A stretch of DNA of 35,333 nt from Bacteroidales bacterium. GTDB lineage: Bacteria > Bacteroidota > Bacteroidia > Bacteroidales > JAUNSR01. Position 1 is the stretch's first letter; each line of letters begins with the position of its first letter. The position numbers and the translations under genes were made by a program. Shown here in pieces: positions 1 to 32,816 of the stretch. Below the pieces are notes generated by a model that was not told the origin of the DNA, made no database searches, and worked only from the letters and a program-made list of their open reading frames with translations. The stretch covers positions 1-35,333 of the forward strand of contig JBOFCW010000305.1 of assembly GCA_051646395.1 (NCBI GenBank), given 5' to 3'.

Positions 1-106
1 GTACTTCCGGCCCTTCATTGTTATTCCCACTGTTGCTGCATGCTGCAAGAGTCGCCAGTATCCCTACCGACCCCATCAAAACCTTTCTCAAATAATTTAT
101 TTTCAT
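1..106 (-). CDS. PUL-associated surface lipoprotein, 5' end only (runs off the left edge of the window)
   Basis: Reverse complement from the ATG at 106..104 reads MKINYLRKVLMGSVGILATLAACSNSGNNNEGPEV. This is a signal peptide with a lipobox Cys (LAAC). It sits third in line after susC and susD on the same strand. It is too short to appear in the ORF track. Confidence 0.5.
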   Translation of the reverse strand, partial: MKINYLRKVLMGSVGILATLAACSNSGNNNEGPEV

Positions 107-425
107 TTATATATAGTTTAATTTTTGGCATTAATGTATAAATGCGCCATTATATAACTTCGGTTGGGTATCTCAACTTTAGGTGAGTTATGGCGATTTC
201 ATCTGTATATATTTTATTTTTTTCATTAAAGTCAGATGCGCCATTTATATACCTTATGTGGGTATCTCAACTTTAGGTGAGTTATGGCGATTTCATTTAT
301 ATATAGTTTAATTTTTAACATTAATGTATAAATGCGCCATTTATATAACTTTTGTTGGGTATCTCAACTTTCGGTGAGTTATGGCGATTTCATCTGTATA
401 TATTTTATTTTTAACTATTCTGCTA
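107..425 (-). repeat. Three copies of a ~96 nt structured intergenic repeat (cores at 142..202, 236..296, 332..393) filling the susD-lipoprotein spacer
   Basis: Plus-strand core is ATGCGCCAT(T)TATATA..GGGTATCTCA..GGTGAGTTATGGCGATTTCAT. The terminal inverted segments AAATGCGCCAT / ATGGCG-ATTT can pair. Cores are separated by 33-35 nt AT-rich linkers of two types. The same family occurs at 1950..2251. Confidence 0.85.
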
Positions 426-1949
426 TCAATAGCCTTTATTCTGCACAATTTTATCATTTTCATCGATGGCCTTTTGAGGAATAGGCAAACGATAAGAAAA
501 CTTGCTAAACGGCTGAAGCTGCGGTTTCCTTCCACTGTCTTTTTTATAAACCGCATTCATAATACCTTCCACCCTATCCAGACGAACAAGATCAAACCAG
601 CGTTGCCCTTCGAAAGCCAGCTCCATCCGTCTTTCGTTCAGATAAGCCTCCAGCAGACTCTCCTTGTCGGATCGCACCGAAGAAGGAAGTTTTCCTAAAC
701 CGGCTCTTTTGCGAATCTGATCGATAATATCGGCCGCGGCATTCAAATCGGGAGTCGGTTGTAAGAGATAAGCTTCCGCTTTAAGCAGCAAAATATCTGC
801 ATAACGATACTTGATGATGCTGTTATATGCTGAACGGATTTTATACATGAACGGATAATGATCTGAGGGATAATAGTTACTCCAATCACAAGAATAATAC
901 ACGATCGATTCTTTAAAACGAACCTCATCACCTTCTGTCTGATAAAGTTTGATAAGATCGCGTGAAGGTGTTACCCATTTTGCCCAGCTCCAGTTATTAT
1001 TCGGGTTAGTCAGATCTTTTCCAAACATCCACGTTACCCAGTTTCCGCTTCCGGAAAAAAACTGAGCTTCGAGAATCGACTCTTTTGTGTTTCTTATCTT
1101 TGCATCCGTTTGCTCACCATTCATTCCGAACAGATCGCTAAAATCTTCAACCAGCTCAAATCCATCGGCCTTCACCTGATCACAATAACTGATTACCTTC
1201 GCATAATCCCGCAACGGCTTTTCGGCATAAACTTTTGCCAGCAAAGCGCGGGCAACAGACTTTGTAAACAGTGTTTTATTACCCCGATTATTAACCGGCG
1301 CATATTCAAGAGATTCTAGCAAATCCTGCTCGATCTGTTTATATACTTCAAGTTCTTCTTTTTGCTCCGGAAAATACAGCGGATACATTTCCTCTACGTT
1401 GTCGGCAGTAATATCTCCGGGAACCTGAGTTTCAACCGGTACATCCCCCCACATGCGCACGACATCAAAGAGGATCATGGCTCTGAATATTTTTGATTGT
1501 GCCTTGTATGTTTCTCGTTCTTCTTTCGAAAAACTATTGTCCGGCACATCATCGACATTGCAGATCAATTTATTGGCTACGGTGATATCCTGCATGAAAC
1601 GGCTCCAGTCTCTATCCAATACGGAATTTGAACCCTCGATCGAGTTATTCTCGAAAGGAATGACCTCGGCTCCGGTTGTCCCACCATACGCGTTATCCGC
1701 ATGCGCGTCTCCGATTAGCAATTGATCCAGATACCAATGTTCCTGGCGATCACGCATCAGTTTATACATCGACTGCATGTGCGTCTCGATGGCGGCTTTA
1801 TCTTTGAATTCTACTTTCTGGCCCGTTTCTGTCATCCCCTCTGTAATTTCAGTATAGGTATCCAGCGGGTCTCTGTCTAACGAACAAGACAATTGGGTAG
1901 TCAACACCAGTGTTGAAGAAAAAGCATATATTAAATATTTGATTTTCAT
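426..1949 (-). CDS. susD: RagB/SusD family nutrient-uptake outer membrane lipoprotein
   Basis: 507 aa ORF with a lipoprotein signal (LTTQLSCSLD). Length and composition are typical of SusD-like proteins. It lies immediately downstream of a SusC-type TonB-dependent transporter on the same strand. Confidence 0.85.
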   Translation of the reverse strand: MKIKYLIYAFSSTLVLTTQLSCSLDRDPLDTYTEITEGMTETGQKVEFKDKAAIETHMQSMYKLMRDRQEHWYLDQLLIGDAHADNAYGGTTGAEVIPFENNSIEGSNSVLDRDWSRFMQDITVANKLICNVDDVPDNSFSKEERETYKAQSKIFRAMILFDVVRMWGDVPVETQVPGDITADNVEEMYPLYFPEQKEELEVYKQIEQDLLESLEYAPVNNRGNKTLFTKSVARALLAKVYAEKPLRDYAKVISYCDQVKADGFELVEDFSDLFGMNGEQTDAKIRNTKESILEAQFFSGSGNWVTWMFGKDLTNPNNNWSWAKWVTPSRDLIKLYQTEGDEVRFKESIVYYSCDWSNYYPSDHYPFMYKIRSAYNSIIKYRYADILLLKAEAYLLQPTPDLNAAADIIDQIRKRAGLGKLPSSVRSDKESLLEAYLNERRMELAFEGQRWFDLVRLDRVEGIMNAVYKKDSGRKPQLQPFSKFSYRLPIPQKAIDENDKIVQNKGY

Positions 1950-2251
1950 TTGTATACAATTATTTATTTAACACTAAAGTCAGATGCGCCATTTATATAC
2001 CTTATGTCGGGTATCTCAGCCACAGGTGAGTTATGGCGATTTCATTTATACATAATTTTATTTTTGACATTAATGTATAAATGCGCCATTTATATACCTT
2101 ATGTCGGGTATCTCAGCCATAGGTGAGTTATGGCGATTTCATTTATACATAATTTTATTTTTGACATTAATGTATAAATGCGCCATTTATATACCCTATG
2201 TCGGGTATCTCAACCATAAGTGTGTTATGGCGATTTCATAGTAGCGGATTA
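1950..2251 (-). repeat. Three tandem 97 nt units of the same structured repeat (cores at 1984..2045, 2081..2142, 2178..2239) between the susC stop and the susD start
   Basis: Units 1984..2080 and 2081..2177 differ at a single position. The 35 nt linkers 2046..2080 and 2143..2177 are identical (TTATACATAATTTTATTTTTGACATTAATGTATAA). The third core, nearest susC, is more diverged (..CAACCATAAGTGTGTT..). Confidence 0.9.
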
Positions 2252-5224
2252 TTAAAATTCAACATTTACACCGAATACAAAAGAACGACAGTGTGGATAT
2301 GTACCCCAATCGATTCCCTGAACAGCTCCATCATTCCCCCATTGGTTTACTTCAGGGTCCATCCCTTTATATTTGGTCCAGGTCAGCAGATTGGAACCGG
2401 TAAAATAAGGCTGGATGCGTGCGATTCCTACTTTTTGCAACTTCGGACGAATAATATTATAGGAAAGCGTTACATCTTTCAGGCGCAGATAACTACCATC
2501 CTCGATAAAATAGGTTGAGTTTTTCATATCGAAATTGGCTTTTGGCACGTCTGTGATCTGTCCCGGAATTCTCCATCTGTCCAGCGTTCTTGTCGATTGA
2601 TTTTTACCGTCGTACATACCCTCTGTCTCCATCCGTGAAGCATTGAAGATATCGTTTCCATAAGATCCCTGAACAAAGACACTCAAAGAGATATTCTTGT
2701 ACATGAATACGTTCGTCATCCCATAAGTGAATTTCGGATTCGGATCACCAATATAAGTTCTGTCTGAGCTTGAAATACGACCGTCTTCATTTAAGTCGCG
2801 ATACATCAGCTCTCCCGTCTCCGGGTCAACCCCGTCACTGATGTAACCGAAAAAGCTTCCCATGGGACGTCCCGGCTCATTACGCACTGCGTACTCCATT
2901 ACCTGATCACTCGTAATGGCATCGTTATAGATCTTTTCCAATGACAATTTGGTCAGTTTATTGCGGTTGAACGAGATATTAAAATCCGTAGTCCAGGTAA
3001 AAGGCCCATCGAAGTTGCGTGAATTGATCAGCATCTCGAACCCTTTATTTAGCATATCTCCTTCGTTTCTGATAATCTTACGTTTCGCTGGCAAGGAAAC
3101 ATACATCAACATATCCGTAGTCTTCTTATAATAATAGTCCATCGATACAGTCAAACGGCTATTTAAAACGGTAAAATCCAGACCGATATTAGTTTGTGTT
3201 GTCGTTTCCCATTTCAAATCGGGAGTGCGCAAGTTGGCTTGTGAAATCAGAGCCAGCGCATTTTCCTGTCCTTCTTTAAACCACTCGACGCGATTTATGT
3301 TATAGCGCTGCAAATAAGAGTAGTCGCCGATTCCCGATTGGTTACCCGTCTGCCCCCAGCCTCCGCGCAGTTTCAGATCATCAATCCATGTGATATCGTT
3401 CATAAAGCCTTCCGACGAAACACGCCAGGCTCCCGAGAAAGAAGGGAATACACCCCAGCGATGATTCGGATGCAGTTTGGAAGAACCGTCACCACGTATG
3501 TTGGCAGTCAGCATGTACTTGCTGTCGTAATTGTAGGATGCACGACCGAAGAAAGACCAGATTGCCCATTCGGATGCTCCTGTTCCTGTTCCGTCCCATG
3601 ATATTTTGTTGGCAGCGTTAAGTGTCTGAATCGTAGCATCACGGAAATGAGATCCGTTGATCCAGCTGTTGGTATACTCGGAAGAGGTCCACGATGATCC
3701 GGTCATCACCTCCAGGCTGTGTTTCTTGAATGACTTATTGAAAGTAAGTATATTATCGAATGTAAAGACCGTATTCATATTGCGATTGTCGGAAGCCTCG
3801 CCGTACTGGTTTCTCCCCCATGCTGTAGAAATCGGATCCAGGAATGTCGTTGAAATGGCATTGCGTCGGTCCAGACTGATCGTAGATTTCAGATTCAGTT
3901 CGGGAATGAATTTGATCAGGGCACTTCCCGAAGCAAGAATGCGGTTTTCACGATCCTTATTGTTTTCAGCACGCGCCATATTTTCCAAAGGATGGGTGAT
4001 ATTCGATATGCCATAGAAGTTGTTGTAATACTGTTCCGGTTTGTCCGGATTCCAGATCGGCGCGTAAGTCGGCGTGTTGATAACGGAAAGGATCACCCCT
4101 CCCCGGTTTGAACCTTTTCCCATCGTACCACCTCCGTTCGAAGTATAGTCGGAATAAGCTACGTTGGCACTTACGTTTAGCCATTTACGCACATCGGTAT
4201 CCACATTCAAACGAAAATTATAACGTCTGTAATAAGCGATATCTAATATCCCCTTTTCACGCAGGTATCCACCGGAAATGAAATAACGACTTTTCTCGTT
4301 TCCTCCAGCAATCGAAAGCTGATAATTCTGGTTGTTACCGGTTGAATAAGTCTCATCAAACCAGTCTGTCTGGTCGGTCAGATTATCGGGCAGATTTACC
4401 AGACCGATTTCTTTCTGTAACTCGGAATACTGTGCCGCATTCAAAGATTCGATTTTGTTGGCCACTTTATTCATCCCGAACTGGCCGTTGAATGTGATTT
4501 TAGCATCTCCGTTCTGGCCGTTTTTTGTAGTAATCAGGATAACGCCGTTTGCCGCGCGCGATCCATAAATAGCTGCAGACGAAGCATCTTTCAGGATTTG
4601 CATGCTCTCGATGTCATTCGGCGATAAAAAGCTGACATTATCAACCGGTATACCATCCACCACATAGAGCGGATCATTACTTCCGTTGAAAGAAGTAGTA
4701 CCACGCACGCGGATAGCCATATTCCCTCCGGGCTGTCCGCTCGGACTGATCACGGATACCCCGGCAGCTTTACCCTGGAGCGCCTGACCGGCAGAAACTA
4801 TCGGACGCTGGTCGAGATCTTTGGCAGAAACGGATGAAATAGCGGTAGTGACATCTTTTCGCTTTACGCTACCATAGCCGATAACCACAACCTCGTCTAA
4901 TGCCTCTGTGTTTTCCCTCAATACGATGGTAAGCGGAGAAGCCGATGATTTTACTTCTTTTTTTTCGTATCCTATATAGGATATAACTAATGTGGATTTT
5001 TCGGATACTTCAAGTTTGAATTTTCCGTCGAAATCCGTTATGGTACCGACGTTCGTACCTTTTTCTATTACGGAAGCACCGATAACCGGATCTTTTCTTT
5101 CGTCTATTACCTGGCCTGTCACGATTACATGCTGGCCTATAGCACCCAGTGCCATTGCAAAAAAACATAAGAAAAAAAGCAATCTGTGATTTCCACGGAA
5201 AGAGTATTGACAAATCTTTCTCAT
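2252..5224 (-). CDS. susC: SusC/RagA family TonB-dependent outer membrane transporter
   Basis: 990 aa ORF. It has an N-terminal signal peptide followed by a carboxypeptidase-regulatory-like domain (VTGQVIDERKDPVIGASVIEKGTNVGTITDFDGKFKLEV). A TonB-box-like DEVVVIGYG, a plug and a beta-barrel ending in an aromatic residue (..GVNVEF) follow. There is no STN domain, so it is not of the ECF/anti-sigma-coupled type. Confidence 0.9.
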   Translation of the reverse strand: MRKICQYSFRGNHRLLFFLCFFAMALGAIGQHVIVTGQVIDERKDPVIGASVIEKGTNVGTITDFDGKFKLEVSEKSTLVISYIGYEKKEVKSSASPLTIVLRENTEALDEVVVIGYGSVKRKDVTTAISSVSAKDLDQRPIVSAGQALQGKAAGVSVISPSGQPGGNMAIRVRGTTSFNGSNDPLYVVDGIPVDNVSFLSPNDIESMQILKDASSAAIYGSRAANGVILITTKNGQNGDAKITFNGQFGMNKVANKIESLNAAQYSELQKEIGLVNLPDNLTDQTDWFDETYSTGNNQNYQLSIAGGNEKSRYFISGGYLREKGILDIAYYRRYNFRLNVDTDVRKWLNVSANVAYSDYTSNGGGTMGKGSNRGGVILSVINTPTYAPIWNPDKPEQYYNNFYGISNITHPLENMARAENNKDRENRILASGSALIKFIPELNLKSTISLDRRNAISTTFLDPISTAWGRNQYGEASDNRNMNTVFTFDNILTFNKSFKKHSLEVMTGSSWTSSEYTNSWINGSHFRDATIQTLNAANKISWDGTGTGASEWAIWSFFGRASYNYDSKYMLTANIRGDGSSKLHPNHRWGVFPSFSGAWRVSSEGFMNDITWIDDLKLRGGWGQTGNQSGIGDYSYLQRYNINRVEWFKEGQENALALISQANLRTPDLKWETTTQTNIGLDFTVLNSRLTVSMDYYYKKTTDMLMYVSLPAKRKIIRNEGDMLNKGFEMLINSRNFDGPFTWTTDFNISFNRNKLTKLSLEKIYNDAITSDQVMEYAVRNEPGRPMGSFFGYISDGVDPETGELMYRDLNEDGRISSSDRTYIGDPNPKFTYGMTNVFMYKNISLSVFVQGSYGNDIFNASRMETEGMYDGKNQSTRTLDRWRIPGQITDVPKANFDMKNSTYFIEDGSYLRLKDVTLSYNIIRPKLQKVGIARIQPYFTGSNLLTWTKYKGMDPEVNQWGNDGAVQGIDWGTYPHCRSFVFGVNVEF

Positions 5225-5275: not shown

Positions 5276-5283
5276 CAAATATA
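5276..5283 (-). promoter_or_regulatory. Candidate Bacteroides -7 box (TATATTTG on the minus strand) for susC
   Basis: Plus-strand CAAATATA is the reverse complement of TAnnTTTG. It lies about 50 nt upstream of the susC ATG at 5224. Confidence 0.4.
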
Positions 5284-5658: not shown

Positions 5659-5666
5659 TATATTTG
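5659..5666 (+). promoter_or_regulatory. Candidate Bacteroides -7 box (TATATTTG) for ansA
   Basis: Exact match to TAnnTTTG, 74 nt upstream of the ansA ATG. I saw no clear -33 TTTG. Confidence 0.4.
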
Positions 5667-9870: not shown

Positions 9871-12648
9871 TTGTTTATCTCAAAAATCAGAATCATTGCG
9901 GTAATCCTGTTTTGCCTGTTGTTCTGTGGCTGCTCCTCGAAAAAAAACACGGCAGCTACACGGCAGTGGCGTGCCTTTACAACACGCTACAACATCTATT
10001 TCAACGGGAACGAAGCCTACAAAGAAGCACTGGCGAACTTTGAAAAAAATTATGAGGATGATTATTCGGAACGGATCTATCAGCATCCGGTCAGCTCTCT
10101 GACAGACAAAGCAGAAGGTGCCAATGCGGGCTTTGACCGAGCAATCGAAAAAAGTCAAAAAGCGATCAAGTTGCGGTCGATGCCCAAACGTCCACCTAAA
10201 AATGCACGAAAAGCGGATGACCCCAACTACAAGGCTTTTTTGAAACGAACCGAATTCAACCCATTTCTGCACAATGCCTGGTTAATGATGGGGCGTTCCC
10301 AATTTTATAAGGGAGACTTCCTTGCCGCCAATGCGACGTTCTTATATATCACCCGCCATTTCGGATGGCTTCCGGAGACGGTTACGGAAAGTATGCTGTG
10401 GATGGCGCATTGTTATACGGAACTGGGATGGATGTATGAAGCCGAAAACACACTTTCGAAAGTGGATGCACAAACGGTACCCAAATCACTAAAAAACCGT
10501 TATAGCACCGTCATGTCGGCTTATCTGATTCGGAAAGGAGAAACCCGCGAGGCAATACCACATCTGGAAATCGCACTCAAAGCCGAGAATAACAAATCGC
10601 AAAAAGCAAGAATGAAGTTTCTGCTCGCTCAGTTATATGCTGAAAATGGCGATCCGGCAAAAGCTTATAAATATTATGGAGAGGTCATGAAAATGAATCC
10701 CTCCTACCGTACCTACTTCAATGCGGGGATCAAACAAACAGAGGTAATGCCCGCTTCGAATACTCAAAAAATAGAGAAGAAACTGAACCGAATGCTTCGC
10801 GATCCGCGCAACAAGGAGTATCTGGATCAGATTCATTACGCAAAAGGAAATCTTTTTCTGGGTCGCAAAGACACCTTAAAAGCCATCGAGGCCTATGAAA
10901 AAGCCGTTGCTGAAAGTACCCGCAACGGGATGGACAAAGCCGTTGCCGCCATTCGCCTGGGCGATCTGACGTTTTCACGGGAAGAATACCTGAAGGCTCA
11001 ACCAGCTTATGCTTCTGCAATGAGTATTCTGAACGAAAAACACCGCGATCACCGACGCATCGCTCACTTATCGCAAGTACTCGACAACCTGTCCACCCAT
11101 GCCGAAACAGTTCATCTGCAGGATAGCTTACTGGCTCTGGCGCAAATGTCCGAACCCGAACGAATGAAGGCGATCCAGGCCGTTATCGACCGTATCATCG
11201 AGGAGGAAAAAAAAGCAGAAGAGGCTGCCCGCCGCGAAGAATATGAAAATAACAAGGGGAATTATACCCAACCGGACAACAACATCCCCTCGGCTCCTTC
11301 GATCAACACGGGCGATAACTCGTGGTATTTTTTCAATAAAATGTCTGTCAACGCAGGTAAAACCGAATTCCAGCGACGTTGGGGCGCGCGAAAGCCAGAG
11401 GATAACTGGCGAAGACGTGATAAATCGCATGTATTTTCGGAAGAGGAAGAAAAAGAGGATGTTGCTCTGACGGATGATAAAACTCCTGATGATGAATCAC
11501 CAACAGCCGATATCGAAGAGACTAACGACAATGAGGCAAACGATCCGAACGCGAACGATCCGAAAAACCCTGATTATTATCTGAAGCAGATTCCATTTTC
11601 AGCTGAAGACCAGGCCAATGCGAATGATCTGATCCGGGAGGGATTATACAATATGGGGATTATCATCAACCAACAACTGGAAAATCTGCCACTTGCCATC
11701 AAAACATTTCTCGATCTGGAAAAGCGTTATCCGGACAATGATCATTCGTTGGATATCTATTATGAAGTATATCTGATGTATATGCGCATGCAAGATGAAG
11801 CGAATGCGGAAACGTACAAACAGTTGATTTTGCAAAAATACCCGCAATCGGCTTATGCAGTCGCACTGAGTGATCCGAATCATATCCGGAACTTACGCGA
11901 AATGGAACAAAAGCAAAACGAATTGTATGAACAGACCTATGCAGCATACCTGGAAGGAAACAGTTCTTTGGTGCACCGCAATTATGAGTTTGTCCTGAAA
12001 AAATGGCCATTAAGCAAATTAATGCCCAACTTCTTATTCCTTCATGCGTTATCTTATGTAGGAGAGAGTGACGGATCACTATTCCGGGAGAATCTGGAAA
12101 AGCTCACAGCCTTATACGGAGAGAGTTTCATGGCTCCCCTTGCAGGCCAGATGCTGAAGGGAATCGCTCAGGGGAAAATGATCGCCTCCGGAGGCAAACC
12201 GATGCAGGGAATGATTTGGAAAACCAGACTAAATAGTAGTCTTGCCGACGAGCTGGCGAATGATTCACTCATGCCTGTTTTCGAACTCAAACAAGATGCG
12301 CCGCATTTGCTTGTATTGGCCTTCCAGACCGACTCTGTTCAGGTGAATCAGTTACTGTTTGATATCGCAAAATATAACTTCACGAATTTCCTTGTGAAAG
12401 ACTTCGATCTGGAAACGATTACTTTCAATGAACTATCCATGCTGGTAATCAAAGGGTTCGACCGTTTTGAGGAATTGAGTGAATATCGATTAAGAATGGC
12501 TTTACCCGGAGGGCTTTCGCTCCCGGCCTCGGTCACTCCGGTTATGATTTCTGATGCGAATTTCAGACTTCTTCTGGAGGGTCGCACTTTTGATGATTAT
12601 TTCAGTTTTATGGAGCAGTGCAGCGAAGCAGAGCTCTCTAAAGAATAA
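9871..12648 (+). CDS. porW: TPR-repeat lipoprotein, probable T9SS component PorW/SprE
   Basis: 925 aa ORF with a TTG start and lipoprotein signal (LLFCGCSS). The N-terminal TTRYNIYFNGNEAYKEA motif resembles SprE as I recall it. TPR-like repeats and an acidic low-complexity linker follow. It lies directly upstream of porX. Confidence 0.6.
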   Translation: MFISKIRIIAVILFCLLFCGCSSKKNTAATRQWRAFTTRYNIYFNGNEAYKEALANFEKNYEDDYSERIYQHPVSSLTDKAEGANAGFDRAIEKSQKAIKLRSMPKRPPKNARKADDPNYKAFLKRTEFNPFLHNAWLMMGRSQFYKGDFLAANATFLYITRHFGWLPETVTESMLWMAHCYTELGWMYEAENTLSKVDAQTVPKSLKNRYSTVMSAYLIRKGETREAIPHLEIALKAENNKSQKARMKFLLAQLYAENGDPAKAYKYYGEVMKMNPSYRTYFNAGIKQTEVMPASNTQKIEKKLNRMLRDPRNKEYLDQIHYAKGNLFLGRKDTLKAIEAYEKAVAESTRNGMDKAVAAIRLGDLTFSREEYLKAQPAYASAMSILNEKHRDHRRIAHLSQVLDNLSTHAETVHLQDSLLALAQMSEPERMKAIQAVIDRIIEEEKKAEEAARREEYENNKGNYTQPDNNIPSAPSINTGDNSWYFFNKMSVNAGKTEFQRRWGARKPEDNWRRRDKSHVFSEEEEKEDVALTDDKTPDDESPTADIEETNDNEANDPNANDPKNPDYYLKQIPFSAEDQANANDLIREGLYNMGIIINQQLENLPLAIKTFLDLEKRYPDNDHSLDIYYEVYLMYMRMQDEANAETYKQLILQKYPQSAYAVALSDPNHIRNLREMEQKQNELYEQTYAAYLEGNSSLVHRNYEFVLKKWPLSKLMPNFLFLHALSYVGESDGSLFRENLEKLTALYGESFMAPLAGQMLKGIAQGKMIASGGKPMQGMIWKTRLNSSLADELANDSLMPVFELKQDAPHLLVLAFQTDSVQVNQLLFDIAKYNFTNFLVKDFDLETITFNELSMLVIKGFDRFEELSEYRLRMALPGGLSLPASVTPVMISDANFRLLLEGRTFDDYFSFMEQCSEAELSKE

Positions 12649-12656
12649 AAAAAACT

Positions 12657-14207
12657 ATGAACAACGAACGTATACTTTGGGCGGATGATGAGATTGACCT
12701 GCTGAAACCTCATATAATGTTCCTACAGCAGAAAGGCTATGAGGTTTCGACGGCTAACAATGGAACGGATGCGATTGAAATGGCAGACGAAAGTCATTTC
12801 GACCTGATTATCCTGGATGAAAATATGCCCGGAATTACGGGATTGGAAACTCTTTCGGTAATCAAAGAACGACATCCGGCCATACCGGTCATCATGATCA
12901 CCAAAAGCGAGGAAGAAGATATTATGAATCAGGCTATCGGTGGTAAAATAGCCGATTACCTGATCAAACCGGTCAATCCGAATCAGATACTGCTTTCCAT
13001 CAAGAAAAACCTGCACGGCAAAGAGATCGTTTCAGAAAAAAACACTTCCGGATATCAGCAGAACTTCGGTAAAATCGGCATGCAGATCAATGATGCACGC
13101 AATTACGAAGACTGGGTGGAAATCTACAAGAAACTGGTTTACTGGGAGCTGGAACTGGAGAATGCGGATAAAGGTTTAATGGAAATGTTTAAGATGCAAA
13201 AAACGGAAGCCAACGCGGCTTTCGTAAAATTCATCAAAAAGAGCTACGAAGGATGGATTACCGGAAGCGAAGACGCGCCCTTGCTGAGTCCTCACCTCTT
13301 CCGTGATCGTTTTTTTCCATTGCTCGACAACGGCGAAAAGGTATTTGTAATTCTGATCGATAACTTCCGCCTTGACCAGTGGCGTACGATCAAGCCTGTC
13401 TTAAGCGAATATTTCACCTTTGAGGAAGACGTGTATTGCAGCATCTTGCCCACGGCTACCCAGTATGCGAGAAACGCAATCTTCTCGGGACTGATGCCGG
13501 ACAAGATCGCTAAAATGTTTCCCGAGCTTTGGGTTGATGAAGATGAAGAAGAGGGCAAGAATCTCAACGAGGCTCCTTTAATTCAAACACAACTCGATCG
13601 TTTCAGAAAAAAATATCCATTCTCATATTATAAGGTAAACGAATCTTCTTTCGGCGAAAAGCTGGTACATAATTTTTCAAATATCGAAAGTAACCCGCTC
13701 AACATCGTTGTGCTTAATTTTATCGACATGCTTTCTCATGCCCGTACCGAGTCGAAAATGATCCGTGAACTGGCATCGACCGAGGCTGCATACCGGGCGC
13801 TGACCAAAACCTGGCTGGAACACTCTTCGACGATCGACCTGTTCCAAAGATTGGCCCAAAGCAATTATAAGGTTATCGTTACCACAGACCATGGAACGAT
13901 TCGTGTGGACAATCCGATCAAAGTGATTGGTGATCGCAACACCAATACGAACCTGCGATACAAAGTGGGTAAAAACCTGAGTTACAACCCAAAGCAGGTT
14001 TACGAGATCAAATCGCCCGAACGCTTCGGACTTCCTAGTCTGAATGTAAGTTCAACATATATTTTTGCCACTAACAGGGATTTTCTGGCTTATCCGAATA
14101 ACTATAACTATTATGTAAGTTATTATAAAGATACCTTTCAACATGGAGGTATCTCGATGGAAGAAATGCTGATTCCTCTGATCACCCTTACTCCGAAGAA
14201 AAGATAA
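12657..14207 (+). CDS. porX: T9SS response regulator PorX (receiver domain plus PglZ/alkaline-phosphatase-like domain)
   Basis: 516 aa ORF. The N-terminal CheY-like receiver has DDE and the acceptor Asp in LIILDENMPG. The long C-terminal domain contains ..TTDHGT.. and ..QHGGIS.., typical of the PglZ/AP superfamily. Confidence 0.8.
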   Translation: MNNERILWADDEIDLLKPHIMFLQQKGYEVSTANNGTDAIEMADESHFDLIILDENMPGITGLETLSVIKERHPAIPVIMITKSEEEDIMNQAIGGKIADYLIKPVNPNQILLSIKKNLHGKEIVSEKNTSGYQQNFGKIGMQINDARNYEDWVEIYKKLVYWELELENADKGLMEMFKMQKTEANAAFVKFIKKSYEGWITGSEDAPLLSPHLFRDRFFPLLDNGEKVFVILIDNFRLDQWRTIKPVLSEYFTFEEDVYCSILPTATQYARNAIFSGLMPDKIAKMFPELWVDEDEEEGKNLNEAPLIQTQLDRFRKKYPFSYYKVNESSFGEKLVHNFSNIESNPLNIVVLNFIDMLSHARTESKMIRELASTEAAYRALTKTWLEHSSTIDLFQRLAQSNYKVIVTTDHGTIRVDNPIKVIGDRNTNTNLRYKVGKNLSYNPKQVYEIKSPERFGLPSLNVSSTYIFATNRDFLAYPNNYNYYVSYYKDTFQHGGISMEEMLIPLITLTPKKR

Positions 14208-30830: not shown

Positions 30831-32369
30831 TTATTTCGTGATGCGGTTTAACCAACCCAACATCATAATCATCGTAAACATCGAGATACAACATGCTACT
30901 ACGAAAACAGACCAAGTGATCCATAGTGGCACGTGCTCGTAAAGAATCGCCCCGATAAACAACAATTGGTTACCCAATGCCGTAGCACCAAGCCATCCAC
31001 CCTGCATCAGACCCTGATACTGCGGAGGAGCCACTTTCGATACGAACGACAATCCAAGCGGGCTGATAAACAACTCGGCCACAGTCAGGATAAAGTAAAC
31101 GACGATCAACAGATAAGGCGTAACACGCATCGCATCCGGAAGACCACCCATGTTTTGTACATCCTGAGAGTTCGGCAAATCAAGCGATCCGACAACCATC
31201 ACCAGGTAAGCAAGCGCAGCGATACCCATACCGATCGCGATCTTAGCAGGAGCCGCAGGTTCTTTGCCACGAGCACGCAACCAACCGAAAATAGCCAATA
31301 CGACCGGAGTCAGGAACACCACGAAGAATGGGTTCATAGCCTGGAATTGCTCTGCTGTGATATTCATCGAACCGATTTTCAATAATGTATAATCTTTGGC
31401 GAAGAACGTCAGTGTCAAACCATTTTGATGGAATGAGAACCAGAAGAAAATAACAATCGCAAAAACTGCCATCAAAGCCCAGATACGCTGTTTTACTTCA
31501 TGAGCAGACATAACGATTTCTTCTTTGCTCATTTCCTGTTTCGCGTCTGATTTTTTTGCAGACCCTTTTGCTCCCGGAAGATTATTTTTACTGACAAGGA
31601 AAATTACCAATGAGATCAGCATCGCAATGATCGCTACACCGAAAGCATAATGGAATCCTTGTGTAAATACATCCAGATAGCTATTGGCAAACTGCAACAA
31701 CTCACCCGGATTCGTCTCATTCAAACATACAGATGCCGCCAGCTCATTGAAACGGGTCATCGCATCCGGAGTCAGCGTATTGTTAATGAATCCGTGACAA
31801 AGTTCGGGAAGATCCGAGTTATAGGCAAAATTAAACTGCCCCAACCACCATTCACGTACTGCCGGTGCGATAAACGGAGCGAAGATAGCACCCACGTTGA
31901 TAAACATATAAAACAACGAAAAACCTGAGTCTCGTTTCTGATTGTATTCCGGATTATCATACATCTGCCCAACCAGAGCCTGTAGATTCCCTTTGAACAA
32001 ACCGTTACCGAAAGCGATTACGAACAAGCCGAAGCAAGTCATGATCAGATAAGTCATACGCGATCCTTCCGGAGCCGGAGTAGGAGTAGGTATCGTTAGT
32101 AACAAATAACCGACAGCCATCAGAATCAATCCGGTCAGGATTGTTCCTTTATAATTACGGGTTTTATCGGCGATAATCCCCCCCACCAGTGCAAGGATGT
32201 AAATCGAAAAGTAAAATACGGAATAGATGATTCCGGCACTTGTCTTGTCGAGTCCAAACTTCGACATCAGGAAAAGCACCAGGATAGCCATCATGGTATA
32301 GAAGCCAAAACGCTCCCCCATGTTGGCCAAAGAGGCTGCTATCAGCCCTTTCGGTTGTCCTTTGATCAT
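30831..32369 (-). CDS. POT/PTR2 family peptide:proton symporter (second paralogue)
   Basis: 512 aa ORF with ..GQPKGLIAASLANMGERFGFYTMMAILVLF.. and ..GGIIADKTRNYKG... It has a longer central loop than its neighbour. Confidence 0.8.
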   Translation of the reverse strand: MIKGQPKGLIAASLANMGERFGFYTMMAILVLFLMSKFGLDKTSAGIIYSVFYFSIYILALVGGIIADKTRNYKGTILTGLILMAVGYLLLTIPTPTPAPEGSRMTYLIMTCFGLFVIAFGNGLFKGNLQALVGQMYDNPEYNQKRDSGFSLFYMFINVGAIFAPFIAPAVREWWLGQFNFAYNSDLPELCHGFINNTLTPDAMTRFNELAASVCLNETNPGELLQFANSYLDVFTQGFHYAFGVAIIAMLISLVIFLVSKNNLPGAKGSAKKSDAKQEMSKEEIVMSAHEVKQRIWALMAVFAIVIFFWFSFHQNGLTLTFFAKDYTLLKIGSMNITAEQFQAMNPFFVVFLTPVVLAIFGWLRARGKEPAAPAKIAIGMGIAALAYLVMVVGSLDLPNSQDVQNMGGLPDAMRVTPYLLIVVYFILTVAELFISPLGLSFVSKVAPPQYQGLMQGGWLGATALGNQLLFIGAILYEHVPLWITWSVFVVACCISMFTMIMMLGWLNRITK

Positions 32370-32563: not shown

Positions 32564-32727
32564 CCCTTACCACCCCTCCACCGTCGGTGAGCGTATCGGA
32601 GCACTCCCGGTGGGGGAATACGTGCACCGGCGATGGAGAGGTACGAGCACGTGCGGTGGATTGATACGCACACCGACGACGCTCGGGTACGCTCACCGAC
32701 GATGATCGGATACCTTCACCGACGGTG
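32564..32727. repeat. GC-rich array of seven phased 23 nt imperfect direct repeats, each junction forming a CACCG-N-CGGTG dyad
   Basis: Minus-strand units are aligned at 32724, 32701, 32678, 32655, 32632, 32609 and 32586, with consensus CGnCGGTGnnCGTAYCnnnnCAY. Plus-strand dyads lie at 32579..32589 and 32717..32727 (10/10 matches). Five further dyads sit every 23 bp between them (8-9/10 matches). Confidence 0.85.
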
Positions 32728-32816
32728 GCGCCATCATCTGTAAAGAGGAAAATCGATTTTAGTATTCCGGAATGGAATGAAGGATTAATATGGTAATAAA
32801 GTTACAAAAAAAAGAA

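Follow-up and report, generated by a model that had tools for sequence, protein, structure and literature searches.

In the 35,333-nt contig JBOFCW010000305.1 of a Bacteroidales bacterium (assembly GCA_051646395.1, JAUNSR01), which was analysed at its full length and is called the window hereafter (coordinates are window positions), the susC-like and susD-like genes of one operon are separated by 302 nt (1950..2251). Why is this spacer so long, when the corresponding genes lie only 12-14 nt apart in the orthologous loci? A preliminary description of the window had recognized three head-to-tail units in the spacer and proposed that they set the SusC:SusD ratio. The length and the three units were confirmed by the open reading frame (ORF) list and by Tandem Repeats Finder (TRF; 1984-2239, period 97, 2.6 copies, 96% matches), and the spacer is indeed beyond the norm of its orthologues. 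Our analysis suggests that it is probably an array of three copies of a ~95-nt non-autonomous mobile repeat, which resembles transposable elements of the miniature inverted-repeat type (MITEs) or repetitive extragenic palindromic (REP) sequences and belongs to a small uncultured Bacteroidales clade.

The susC-like gene, the susD-like gene and a GH30-family lipoprotein gene follow each other in the same direction on the minus strand; the letters quoted in the preliminary description are therefore the reverse complement of the mRNA. Read in the sense direction, the spacer starts with a remnant of the ancestral 12-nt susC-susD spacer (TAATCCGCTACT, 2240..2251, minus strand), whose length and position fit the 12-14 nt spacers of three related loci, L033, L037 and L039. 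The remnant is followed by unit B3 (2143..2239, minus strand; nhmmer E=1e-27; covariance model 85.8 bits), whose core (2239-2178) starts with the ancestral susD ATG and the mini-ORF MKSP-stop (2239-2225), and whose tail (2177-2143) is of type I. Units B2 (2046..2142; core 2142-2081, mini-ORF 2142-2128, type-I tail 2080-2046) and B1 (1950..2045; core 2045-1984, mini-ORF 2045-2031, type-II tail 1983-1950) are on the same strand and were also identified by both nhmmer and the covariance model. The B1 tail ends with GTATACAA, abutting the working susD ATG.

The next spacer of the operon, 319 nt in length, is filled in the same way, which the preliminary description had missed. A remnant of the ancestral susD-GH30 spacer (TAGCAGAATAGTTAAAAATAAAATATATACAG, 394..425, minus strand), comparable with the 35-54 nt spacers of the orthologues, leads to a second three-unit array (107..393, minus strand; TRF 101-415, period 94, 3.3 copies, 85% matches). 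Array A runs from the ancestral GH30 ATG to the working one; on the minus strand it contains units A3 (type I; core 393-332, tail 331-297), A2 (type II; core 296-236, tail 235-203) and A1 (type I; core 202-142, tail 141-107). Profile and covariance-model scans detected no copies in the remaining 33 kb of the window.

As the preliminary description had stated, the 97-nt segments 1984-2080 and 2081-2177 are one base apart, and the partial unit on the susC side is more diverged (4 of 62 positions). Unit by unit, the B1 and B2 cores match at 61/62 positions and the B2 and B3 tails at 35/35; A1 and A3 match at 58/62 positions in their cores and 33/35 in their tails. Between arrays A and B, the cores are ~84-94% identical and tails of the same type match at 31/35 positions. 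In array B, the tail of B1 is of type II and those of B2 and B3 are of type I, and the tails of array A alternate as I-II-I. The near-identity of neighbouring units points to recent local duplication, which agrees with the recent tandem amplification proposed before, and the mixture of tail subtypes in both arrays points to more than one insertion or to exchange between the arrays. The two arrays, ~290 nt each (107-393 and 1950-2239), flank susD as direct repeats; recombination between them could delete or amplify the gene.

Evidence for insertion comes from loci in which the same spacers are empty. Close SusD orthologues (81%, 71% and 72% identity) are present in L033, L037 and L039, where a divergent asparaginase gene is followed by susC, susD, GH30, a gene for a DUF5016/5125/5121 protein (a surface glycan-binding protein) and GH3. 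In L033 the TAA stop codon of susC is followed by TTTTTGGATGCT and then by ATGAAAATC; in L037 it is followed by AAGACTTGTATACT and ATGAAACTC. In the window it is followed by TAATCCGCTACT, ATGAAA, the inserted sequence that runs from TCGCC through the three units to TATACAAATGAAA, and finally ATCAAATAT. Array B thus starts at the exact former start of susD and ends with a new ATGAAA that runs into the unchanged susD coding sequence. The GH30 junction of the window shows the same arrangement: a 32-nt native leader, ATGAAA, the inserted sequence from TCGCC through three units to ATATATAAATGAAA, and then ATAAATTAT.

A third pair of filled and empty sites is located outside any polysaccharide utilization locus (PUL). 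The glycosyltransferase gene of L007 is preceded by one copy of the element; in its orthologues in L066-L068 (70-75% identity) the junction is 3 nt, a 4-nt overlap (ATGA) or 22 nt. At the empty junction of L067 (upstream sequence ...TTTATC), GATTTATC is followed by ATGAAAGTACTC. At the filled junction of L007 (upstream sequence ...CACCCA), TTCACCCA is followed by ATGAAA, by the element from TCGCC to ACATAACAAATGAAA (element end ACAAATGAAA, then GTTCTC) and by GTTCTCTGC. Both the protein start MKVL and the overlapping TGA stop codon of the upstream gene, which lies in the old ATGA, are preserved. ATGAA(A) is found on both flanks at all three sites with an empty-site comparison. At the diverged copy L032:5778, ATGGA is found on both sides and the gene begins with ATGGAG, which favours a 5-nt target duplication.

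Occupancy of the same PUL differs among the four relatives. In the window, susD and GH30 are each preceded by an array; in L033 a diverged copy is joined to the start of GH3, in L037 a copy lies 95 nt upstream of the divergent asparaginase gene, and L039 is free of copies. At 10130-10290 of L033, the closest relative, a strong terminator-like hairpin (AGAGGGTATAT...ATATACCCTCTTTTT) is followed, within at most 25 nt, by this diverged copy, which is shortened, lacks the P3 hairpin of the element and lies at the GH3 start codon; if GH3 of L033 is expressed from there, the promoter would have to be inside or just before the element.

In the sense direction, the consensus of the unit is AATGAAATCGCCATAA-CTCACCTAAAGWTGAG-ATACCCAACAAAAGGTAT-ATAAATGGCGCATTT, followed by the tail and then AAATGAA. 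The unit is 95-105 nt in length, has ~35% G+C and is non-coding save a 4-codon ORF. Its first part is an ATG, which is the ancestral start codon in the first unit of a site, and AAA TCG CCA TAA, together forming the MKSP-stop mini-ORF; the stop is kept in nearly all copies, as TAA or, in L017, as TAG. The second part is a core of 61-62 nt, whose ends pair (P1, AAATCGCCAT/ATGGCG(C)ATTT) around the hairpins P2 (CTCA..TGAG) and P3 (ATACC..GGTAT) to form a three-way junction; P1 covers the nucleotides right after the old ATG. The stem AAATGCGCCAT/ATGGCG-ATTT and the inner CTCAGCC-ACA-GGTGAG hairpin reported previously are both present, and P3 is added here. The third part is an A/T-rich, weakly structured tail of 33-45 nt (33-35 nt in the window), which ends with ...ATATAyAA directly before the next ATG. 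There are at least three tail subtypes: the metagenome-assembled genome (MAG) S4R_St_48 has TTAGAGGTAACGGTTAG..., and the window shares type I (CATTTATACATTAATG...) and type II (CATYTGACTTTARTG...) with its nearer relatives. The unit has no terminal inverted repeats; its 5' end (ATCGCCATAAC...) and 3' end (...AAATTATATACAA) are not inverted copies of each other, and the only inverted arms (AAATCGCCAT / ATGGCGCATTT) are internal, with 33-45 nt of tail outside them.

For a single unit, the folding energy is -15 to -21 kcal/mol (z -2.3 to -3.3); for the whole susC-susD spacer, z is -4.7 in the sense direction and -3.7 in the antisense direction. According to the fold predictions, the old ATG itself can pair when a tail precedes the unit; within the arrays the type-I tail can pair with the next ATG, whereas the tail before susD cannot. 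The structure was tested on a 50-copy alignment with a three-helix model and with shuffled and slid controls. The model pairs 91% of cells, compared to 20-51% in the slid controls. Covariation in this alignment was not above control (0.051, compared to 0.052 in the shuffles), the copies being too similar for a strong test. Seven cells carry double changes, a number reached by 27 of 500 shuffles; RNAalifold retains P1 alone, and the wobble-pair test gave no strand preference (G:U 22 vs A:C 20). The fold is a real property of the sequence, and selection on the fold has no support from covariation. A conserved small ORF, from the internal ATGGCG to a TGA that overlaps the next ATG, was also considered; it is present in the window, L024, L028 and L008 and is broken in the S4R_St_48 variant, L004, L021 and L023.

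How far does the element extend beyond this operon? The degenerate core pattern AATCGCCATAAC-N10-16-GAGATACCC was scanned over 185,579 species, one genome each. It matched 32 stretches, 30 of which are in four uncultured Bacteroidales MAGs (16 loci in JAUNSR01 S4R_St_48, 8 in JAVVPN01, 5 in JAVWBH01 and 1 in JAVVQG01), the other two being chance matches. An nhmmer profile built from the six window copies was run on the loci of the pattern scan and found 52 further copies in the 30 loci; the covariance model agrees and added just a few weak or degenerate copies. Diverged copies are also present in L033 and L037, two orthologous PUL contigs, and the family spans four to six related MAG species. 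Grouping of the matches gave 47 sites in the window and the related MAG loci, before many kinds of genes. The Joint Genome Institute (JGI) metagenomes gave one chance match, viral contigs gave chance matches only, and plasmids and phages gave no match. No Rfam 15 covariance model matched the window at gathering thresholds, and a permissive search of positions 1-2400 gave hits at chance level only (E of at least 1). The family has a narrow range and is undescribed.

Tandem arrays of two or three copies occupy 11 of the 47 sites, nine of them outside the window in independently assembled MAGs. Several copies are truncated at the 5' end (L015 724-774, L019 5232-5286, L028 3243-3294, L024 3274-3317, L029 1917-1977, L032 1772-1840 and L014 7686-7720). 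They keep the 3' half only (GGTATATAAATGGCGCATTT, the tail and the ATG), and several are directly upstream of a full copy or a gene start; they could represent decay or deletion, or hint at the insertion mechanism. At L031:1052-1106, a deletion has removed everything between the TATAAATG repeat in the core and that at the tail end and has fused the core to a downstream 267-aa gene, so recombination within units also occurs. In L012, a weak covariance-model match (2259-2321, E 0.04) lies between susC and the L012 element, and the element has tail-like sequence immediately upstream; these are probably traces of a second, decayed copy, in a further susC-susD spacer.

At 28 of 46 evaluable sites, the terminal ATG of the element opens an ORF that either has at least 100 aa or runs off the locus (L004 and L031:1052 were added to this count by eye). 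About 11 further sites have a co-oriented gene 58-233 nt downstream, and at about five the context is convergent or antisense; about 17 orphan copies have an ATG that starts no gene. Outside the elements, the same loci contain 1115 ATGAA sites, 53 at called starts, 151 intergenic and 911 in genes; no site of the element is within a coding region, although 911 of these 1115 are coding. Even if only start-codon and intergenic sites were tolerated, a start-codon fraction of 26% would be expected, compared to the 61% observed (P = 6.5e-7). Co-orientation with the downstream gene is found at ~38 of 44 sites (P = 5e-7). The upstream neighbour is usually a co-directional gene that ends 3-30 nt before the element, which makes an operon-internal junction its typical home.

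The genes that follow the element are functionally unrelated. They encode an FAA hydrolase, PorV, a TonB-dependent receptor, a glycosyltransferase, GH3, four different SusD paralogues, YaaA, GFO/IDH/MocA and Zn-dependent dehydrogenases, a radical-SAM activase-like protein, an Nfo-type endonuclease, MlaD, a histidine kinase and its response regulator, and several DUF proteins. At least 20 of them are non-PUL genes. The context is a PUL at ~9 of 47 sites, a proportion that does not clearly exceed that of PULs in such genomes, and four independent susC-susD junctions have a copy (the window, L004, L012 and L020). No insertion site is common to different species; the best cross-identity of genes at occupied starts is 31%.

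These observations can be accommodated by the following mechanism. The element would insert in the sense orientation at ATGAA(A), which in these A+T-rich genomes is usually a Met-Lys start codon, and would leave ATGAA(A) on both sides. The old reading frame would be closed after four codons by the in-frame TAA, and P1 could hide the nucleotides that follow the old ATG. The tail would imitate a native Bacteroidota leader that lacks a Shine-Dalgarno sequence and supply a new start codon, so that the coding sequence is restored exactly; this exact restoration would explain why the element is tolerated between co-transcribed genes such as susC-susD and susD-GH30. Since the 3' end of each copy regenerates the target, arrays may grow by re-insertion as well as by unequal crossing-over, and both routes seem to have acted in the window, where each array has two tail subtypes and yet B1, B2 and B3 are nearly identical. 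Mobilization would be in trans, by an enzyme encoded elsewhere. Possible effects on expression include the loss of tight susC-susD spacing, ribosome loading on the mini-ORFs and an effect on RNase action or stability; it is plausible that three stacked units change the output of SusD and GH30 relative to SusC.

In lifestyle the element is MITE-like: it is small and non-coding, has many dispersed copies and shows presence/absence polymorphism. Several points weigh against the mobile-repeat explanation. Without terminal inverted repeats, the element is not a textbook MITE. With regard to target duplication, the repeats that flank the three compared sites (ATGAA(A)) and L032:5778 (ATGGA) would look the same if ATGAA were borne by the element; the direct repeat may have arisen by target-site duplication, or it may belong to the 3' end of the element, and the flanks of L004 (ATGAA/ATGAG) fit target duplication imperfectly. 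The start-codon excess may reflect an extended target preference or selection after insertion. No transposase or recombinase with matching ends was found in the sequence covered, the 8-kb stretches around the matches. The 5'-truncated copies of L015, L019, L028, L029 and L032, which keep the 3' half, are not accounted for. The relatives are all MAGs, and the copy number of near-identical tandem units is uncertain in short-read assemblies. Finally, that the element is a passenger with a near-neutral or modest effect on expression is what we infer.

Translation initiation in Bacteroidota relies on unstructured A-rich leaders instead of a Shine-Dalgarno sequence. The leader dependence of initiation in this phylum is also discussed in PMC11697453. 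Against this background, we tentatively raise the possibility that the element represents a previously undescribed type of mobile repeat, one that targets gene starts (ATGAA, Met-Lys/Asn), heals its own insertion, masks the old start and stacks at operon junctions, where the stacked mini-ORF leaders could tune the translation of cistrons (SusD and GH30 relative to SusC). If so, an unusual insertion strategy would be added to those of small bacterial repeats, namely insertion at a start codon, in the sense orientation and with the start restored, contrary to the usual avoidance of upstream and intercistronic positions. Odd long spacers in PULs and other operons of uncultured Bacteroidales would then need no regulatory reading. 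The family would also provide a natural experiment on initiation without a Shine-Dalgarno sequence, in which one 35-nt tail serves as the leader of dozens of unrelated genes and arrays put one to three decoy mini-ORFs before a cistron. In practical terms, such repeats break short-read assemblies.

Is the array transcribed with its operon? The gene layout was taken from the ORF listing and Pfam. The first gene of the operon (2252..5224, minus strand) encodes a susC-like TonB-dependent transporter of 990 aa (Pfam Plug and CarboxypepD_reg/CarbopepD_reg_2); its orthologues in L033, L037 and L039 are 995 aa in length. The susD-like gene (426..1949, minus strand) encodes 507 aa (Pfam SusD_RagB and SusD-like_3; 81% identity to P0002). 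It is intact and has the length of its orthologues; an exact-protein look-up with this SusD returned no record. The 5' end of the GH30-family lipoprotein gene (1..106, minus strand; translation MKINYLRKVLMGSVGILATLAACS...) runs off the window end; aligned from residue 1, the truncated product is 83% identical to the L033 GH30 over residues 1-35, which identifies it as the GH30 orthologue. A pattern search located a -7 box of the Bacteroidota TAnnTTTG type (TATATTTG, 5276..5283, minus strand) 52 nt upstream of the susC ATG. It is the sole sense-strand TAnnTTTG match between 5224 and 5740 and the probable operon promoter. The second good TAnnTTTG box (5659-5666, plus strand) is upstream of the asparaginase gene. 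Within the two arrays there is no sense-strand TAnnTTTG, and no terminator-like site was found on the minus (sense) strand in 1-2400, where P1 is followed by CAUUUAUAC or CAUUUGUACC; a sigma-70-type promoter scan was not informative for Bacteroidota. With co-directional genes, no terminator or internal -7 box on the sense strand and a good box upstream of susC, the arrays are very probably transcribed as part of the susC-susD-GH30 mRNA, as had been assumed.

Several explanations other than a mobile repeat were weighed. The one that survives best, although we regard it as unlikely, is that the unit is a domesticated, genome-wide 5'-leader module, i.e. a portable translation-control cassette that answers to a common trans factor (an RNA-binding protein, a small RNA (sRNA) or temperature) and defines a regulon. 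The sense orientation and exact start-codon fusion would suit such a cassette in a phylum whose initiation depends on A-rich leaders, as would the conserved in-frame stop and junction nucleotides and the predicted difference between type-I tails inside the arrays, which can pair with the next ATG, and the tail before susD. However, a regulon is hard to reconcile with downstream genes that have no common function, with the ~17 orphan copies or with the lack of any site conserved between species. There is no covariation signal either, and the sequence conservation is as expected of young copies.

The proposal of the preliminary description, a cis-regulatory RNA device of this PUL that sets the SusC:SusD ratio through processing, stability, attenuation or translation in the manner of REP elements, bacterial interspersed mosaic elements (BIMEs) or ERIC sequences, now appears improbable. 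SusC and SusD work as a fixed complex, so ratio-setting is not obviously useful. The units do lie inside the operon, they replace a 12-14 nt spacer, the sense strand of the spacer folds well (z -4.7) and four independent susC-susD junctions have a copy; precedents for operon-internal repeats that change expression are summarized in PMC3049150 and PMC2229807. However, the 47 dispersed sites are mostly before non-PUL genes, including at least 20 unrelated ones, the spacer after susD is filled as well, and the susD orthologues of close relatives work with a spacer of 12-14 nt. The preliminary description had itself named, as evidence against such a role, dispersal over the genome without a PUL bias together with transcript coverage and a SusC/SusD ratio unaffected by deletion of the unit; the first half of this, a dispersed repeat with no clear PUL bias, is what we found. 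No intrinsic terminator or attenuator was found on the sense strand (1-2400), and a structured cis-regulatory RNA under selection is not indicated, with covariation at the shuffle level, no strand preference of wobble pairs (G:U 22 vs A:C 20) and unrelated downstream genes. The unit belongs to no curated RNA family of Rfam 15.

There is also little reason to think that the tandem copy number is an artefact of short-read metagenome assembly and that the real locus has one or two units. The array was seen once, in a 35-kb metagenome contig, and units that are one base apart per 97 are hard to resolve with short reads. Against this, two- or three-unit arrays occur at the nine further sites in independently assembled MAGs, and the three units of each window array can be told apart by their substitutions and tail subtypes. 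With a single unit, the main conclusions would still hold.

On the plus strand, an antisense match to the -7 box (TATTTTTG) is present in the B2 tail (2059..2066) and repeated in the B3 tail (2156-2163), and a stem followed by ATTTCATTT scored as terminator-like at 2116-2134. It is nevertheless very improbable that the units are plus-strand antisense sRNA genes or outward promoters, antisense to the 3' end of susC, given that the exact TAnnTTTG boxes are absent from array A and not conserved in the family (other members have TATTTTTC/A/T there), that no TTTG is present at -33 with the canonical 19-21 nt spacing, that Rfam gave no match although the FopS family was deposited there by its authors (PMC11697453), and that the orientation rule of the family follows the sense strand. 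The boxes are probably a by-product of the A-rich sense tail. The full Bacteroidota sigma-ABfr promoter (TTTG, 19-21 nt, TAnnTTTG) is not found on the sense strand of the arrays, and plus-strand matches occur in two units only.

Two other features of the window were noted. An ORF at 12657-14207 encodes a protein with a response-regulator receiver and a PglZ domain, an architecture which we take to be that of PorX, the regulator of the type IX secretion system; it adjoins the gene of a 925-aa TPR protein (9871-12648) and has no relation to the repeat. Beside a POT/PTR2 transporter gene (30831-32369), a minus-strand intergenic region (32570-32735) contains a G+C-rich island of ~170 nt in an A+T-rich spacer. 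The island contains CGTCGGTGAGCGTA-like repeats of 23 nt (TRF 32663-32724) as well as inverted arms of 51 nt; its folding energy is -87.6 kcal/mol (z -3.8), and Rfam gave no match for it.

The element can be compared with several known systems. The PUL sRNAs of Bacteroides (FopS/GibS and the cis-antisense DonS type) are, like the element, multicopy, short, structured and associated with susC-type operons (PMC11697453). Different from the element, which lacks these features on its sense strand, they have their own sigma-ABfr promoters, end in rho-independent terminators and, at the 5' ends of susC, act in trans or antisense (PMC11697453). A FopS/GibS- or DonS-like sRNA was ruled out, as the element has no sense-strand promoter or terminator of its own and no Rfam match. 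The Correia/NEMIS elements of Neisseria and the ERIC/IRU elements of enterobacteria share a size of ~100-150 nt, dispersal, a stem closed by the ends and co-transcription beside or between genes; their reported effects are cleavage by RNase III or RNase E and orientation-dependent mRNA stability (PMC2229807, PMC3049150). They have terminal inverted repeats, a TA or short duplication, no fixed gene orientation and no contact with start codons, whereas the element lacks terminal inverted repeats, has an A/T-rich tail that is asymmetric, points in the sense direction at ~38 of 44 sites and restores a start codon.

REP sequences and BIMEs in E. coli operons, such as malE-malF, are also structured intercistronic repeats, and they can change the relative output of neighbouring cistrons. 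Attenuation by BIMEs is cited in PMC3049150. Compared to the element, which is 95 nt in length, A+T-rich, located at a start codon and has no known link to REP-associated tyrosine transposases (RAYTs), REPs are 35-40 nt G+C-rich palindromes after stop codons and are linked to RAYTs; the REP/REPIN head GTAG/CTAC is absent from the unit (~35% G+C, 95 nt). The BOX elements of S. pneumoniae (boxA-(boxB)n-boxC) resemble the element in being modular and co-transcribed, in having variable tandem units and in their ability to create or carry starts of small ORFs (PMC3049150). Pneumococcal repeats are over-represented downstream of convergent genes and under-represented between genes that are co-transcribed (PMC3049150), the opposite of what the element prefers. 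BOX repeats an internal module, whereas the element repeats whole units.

The BrickBuilt MITE of Porphyromonas gingivalis is likewise from Bacteroidales, species-restricted and intergenic, and has tandem repeats (PMC4596501). Its 23-nt minisatellite units are enclosed by a leader and a tail whose ends are inverted repeats; it is located at a distance of 49-591 nt from coding sequences and acts as a promoter in both directions (PMC4596501). The two have no sequence similarity, and BrickBuilt shows no start-codon fusion. Like the Rickettsia palindromic elements, the element would be a selfish repeat that can sit in normally lethal places by keeping the host product intact. The Rickettsia elements are inserted in frame and become part of the translated protein; the element studied here remains outside it, as the old frame is stopped and a new start supplied.

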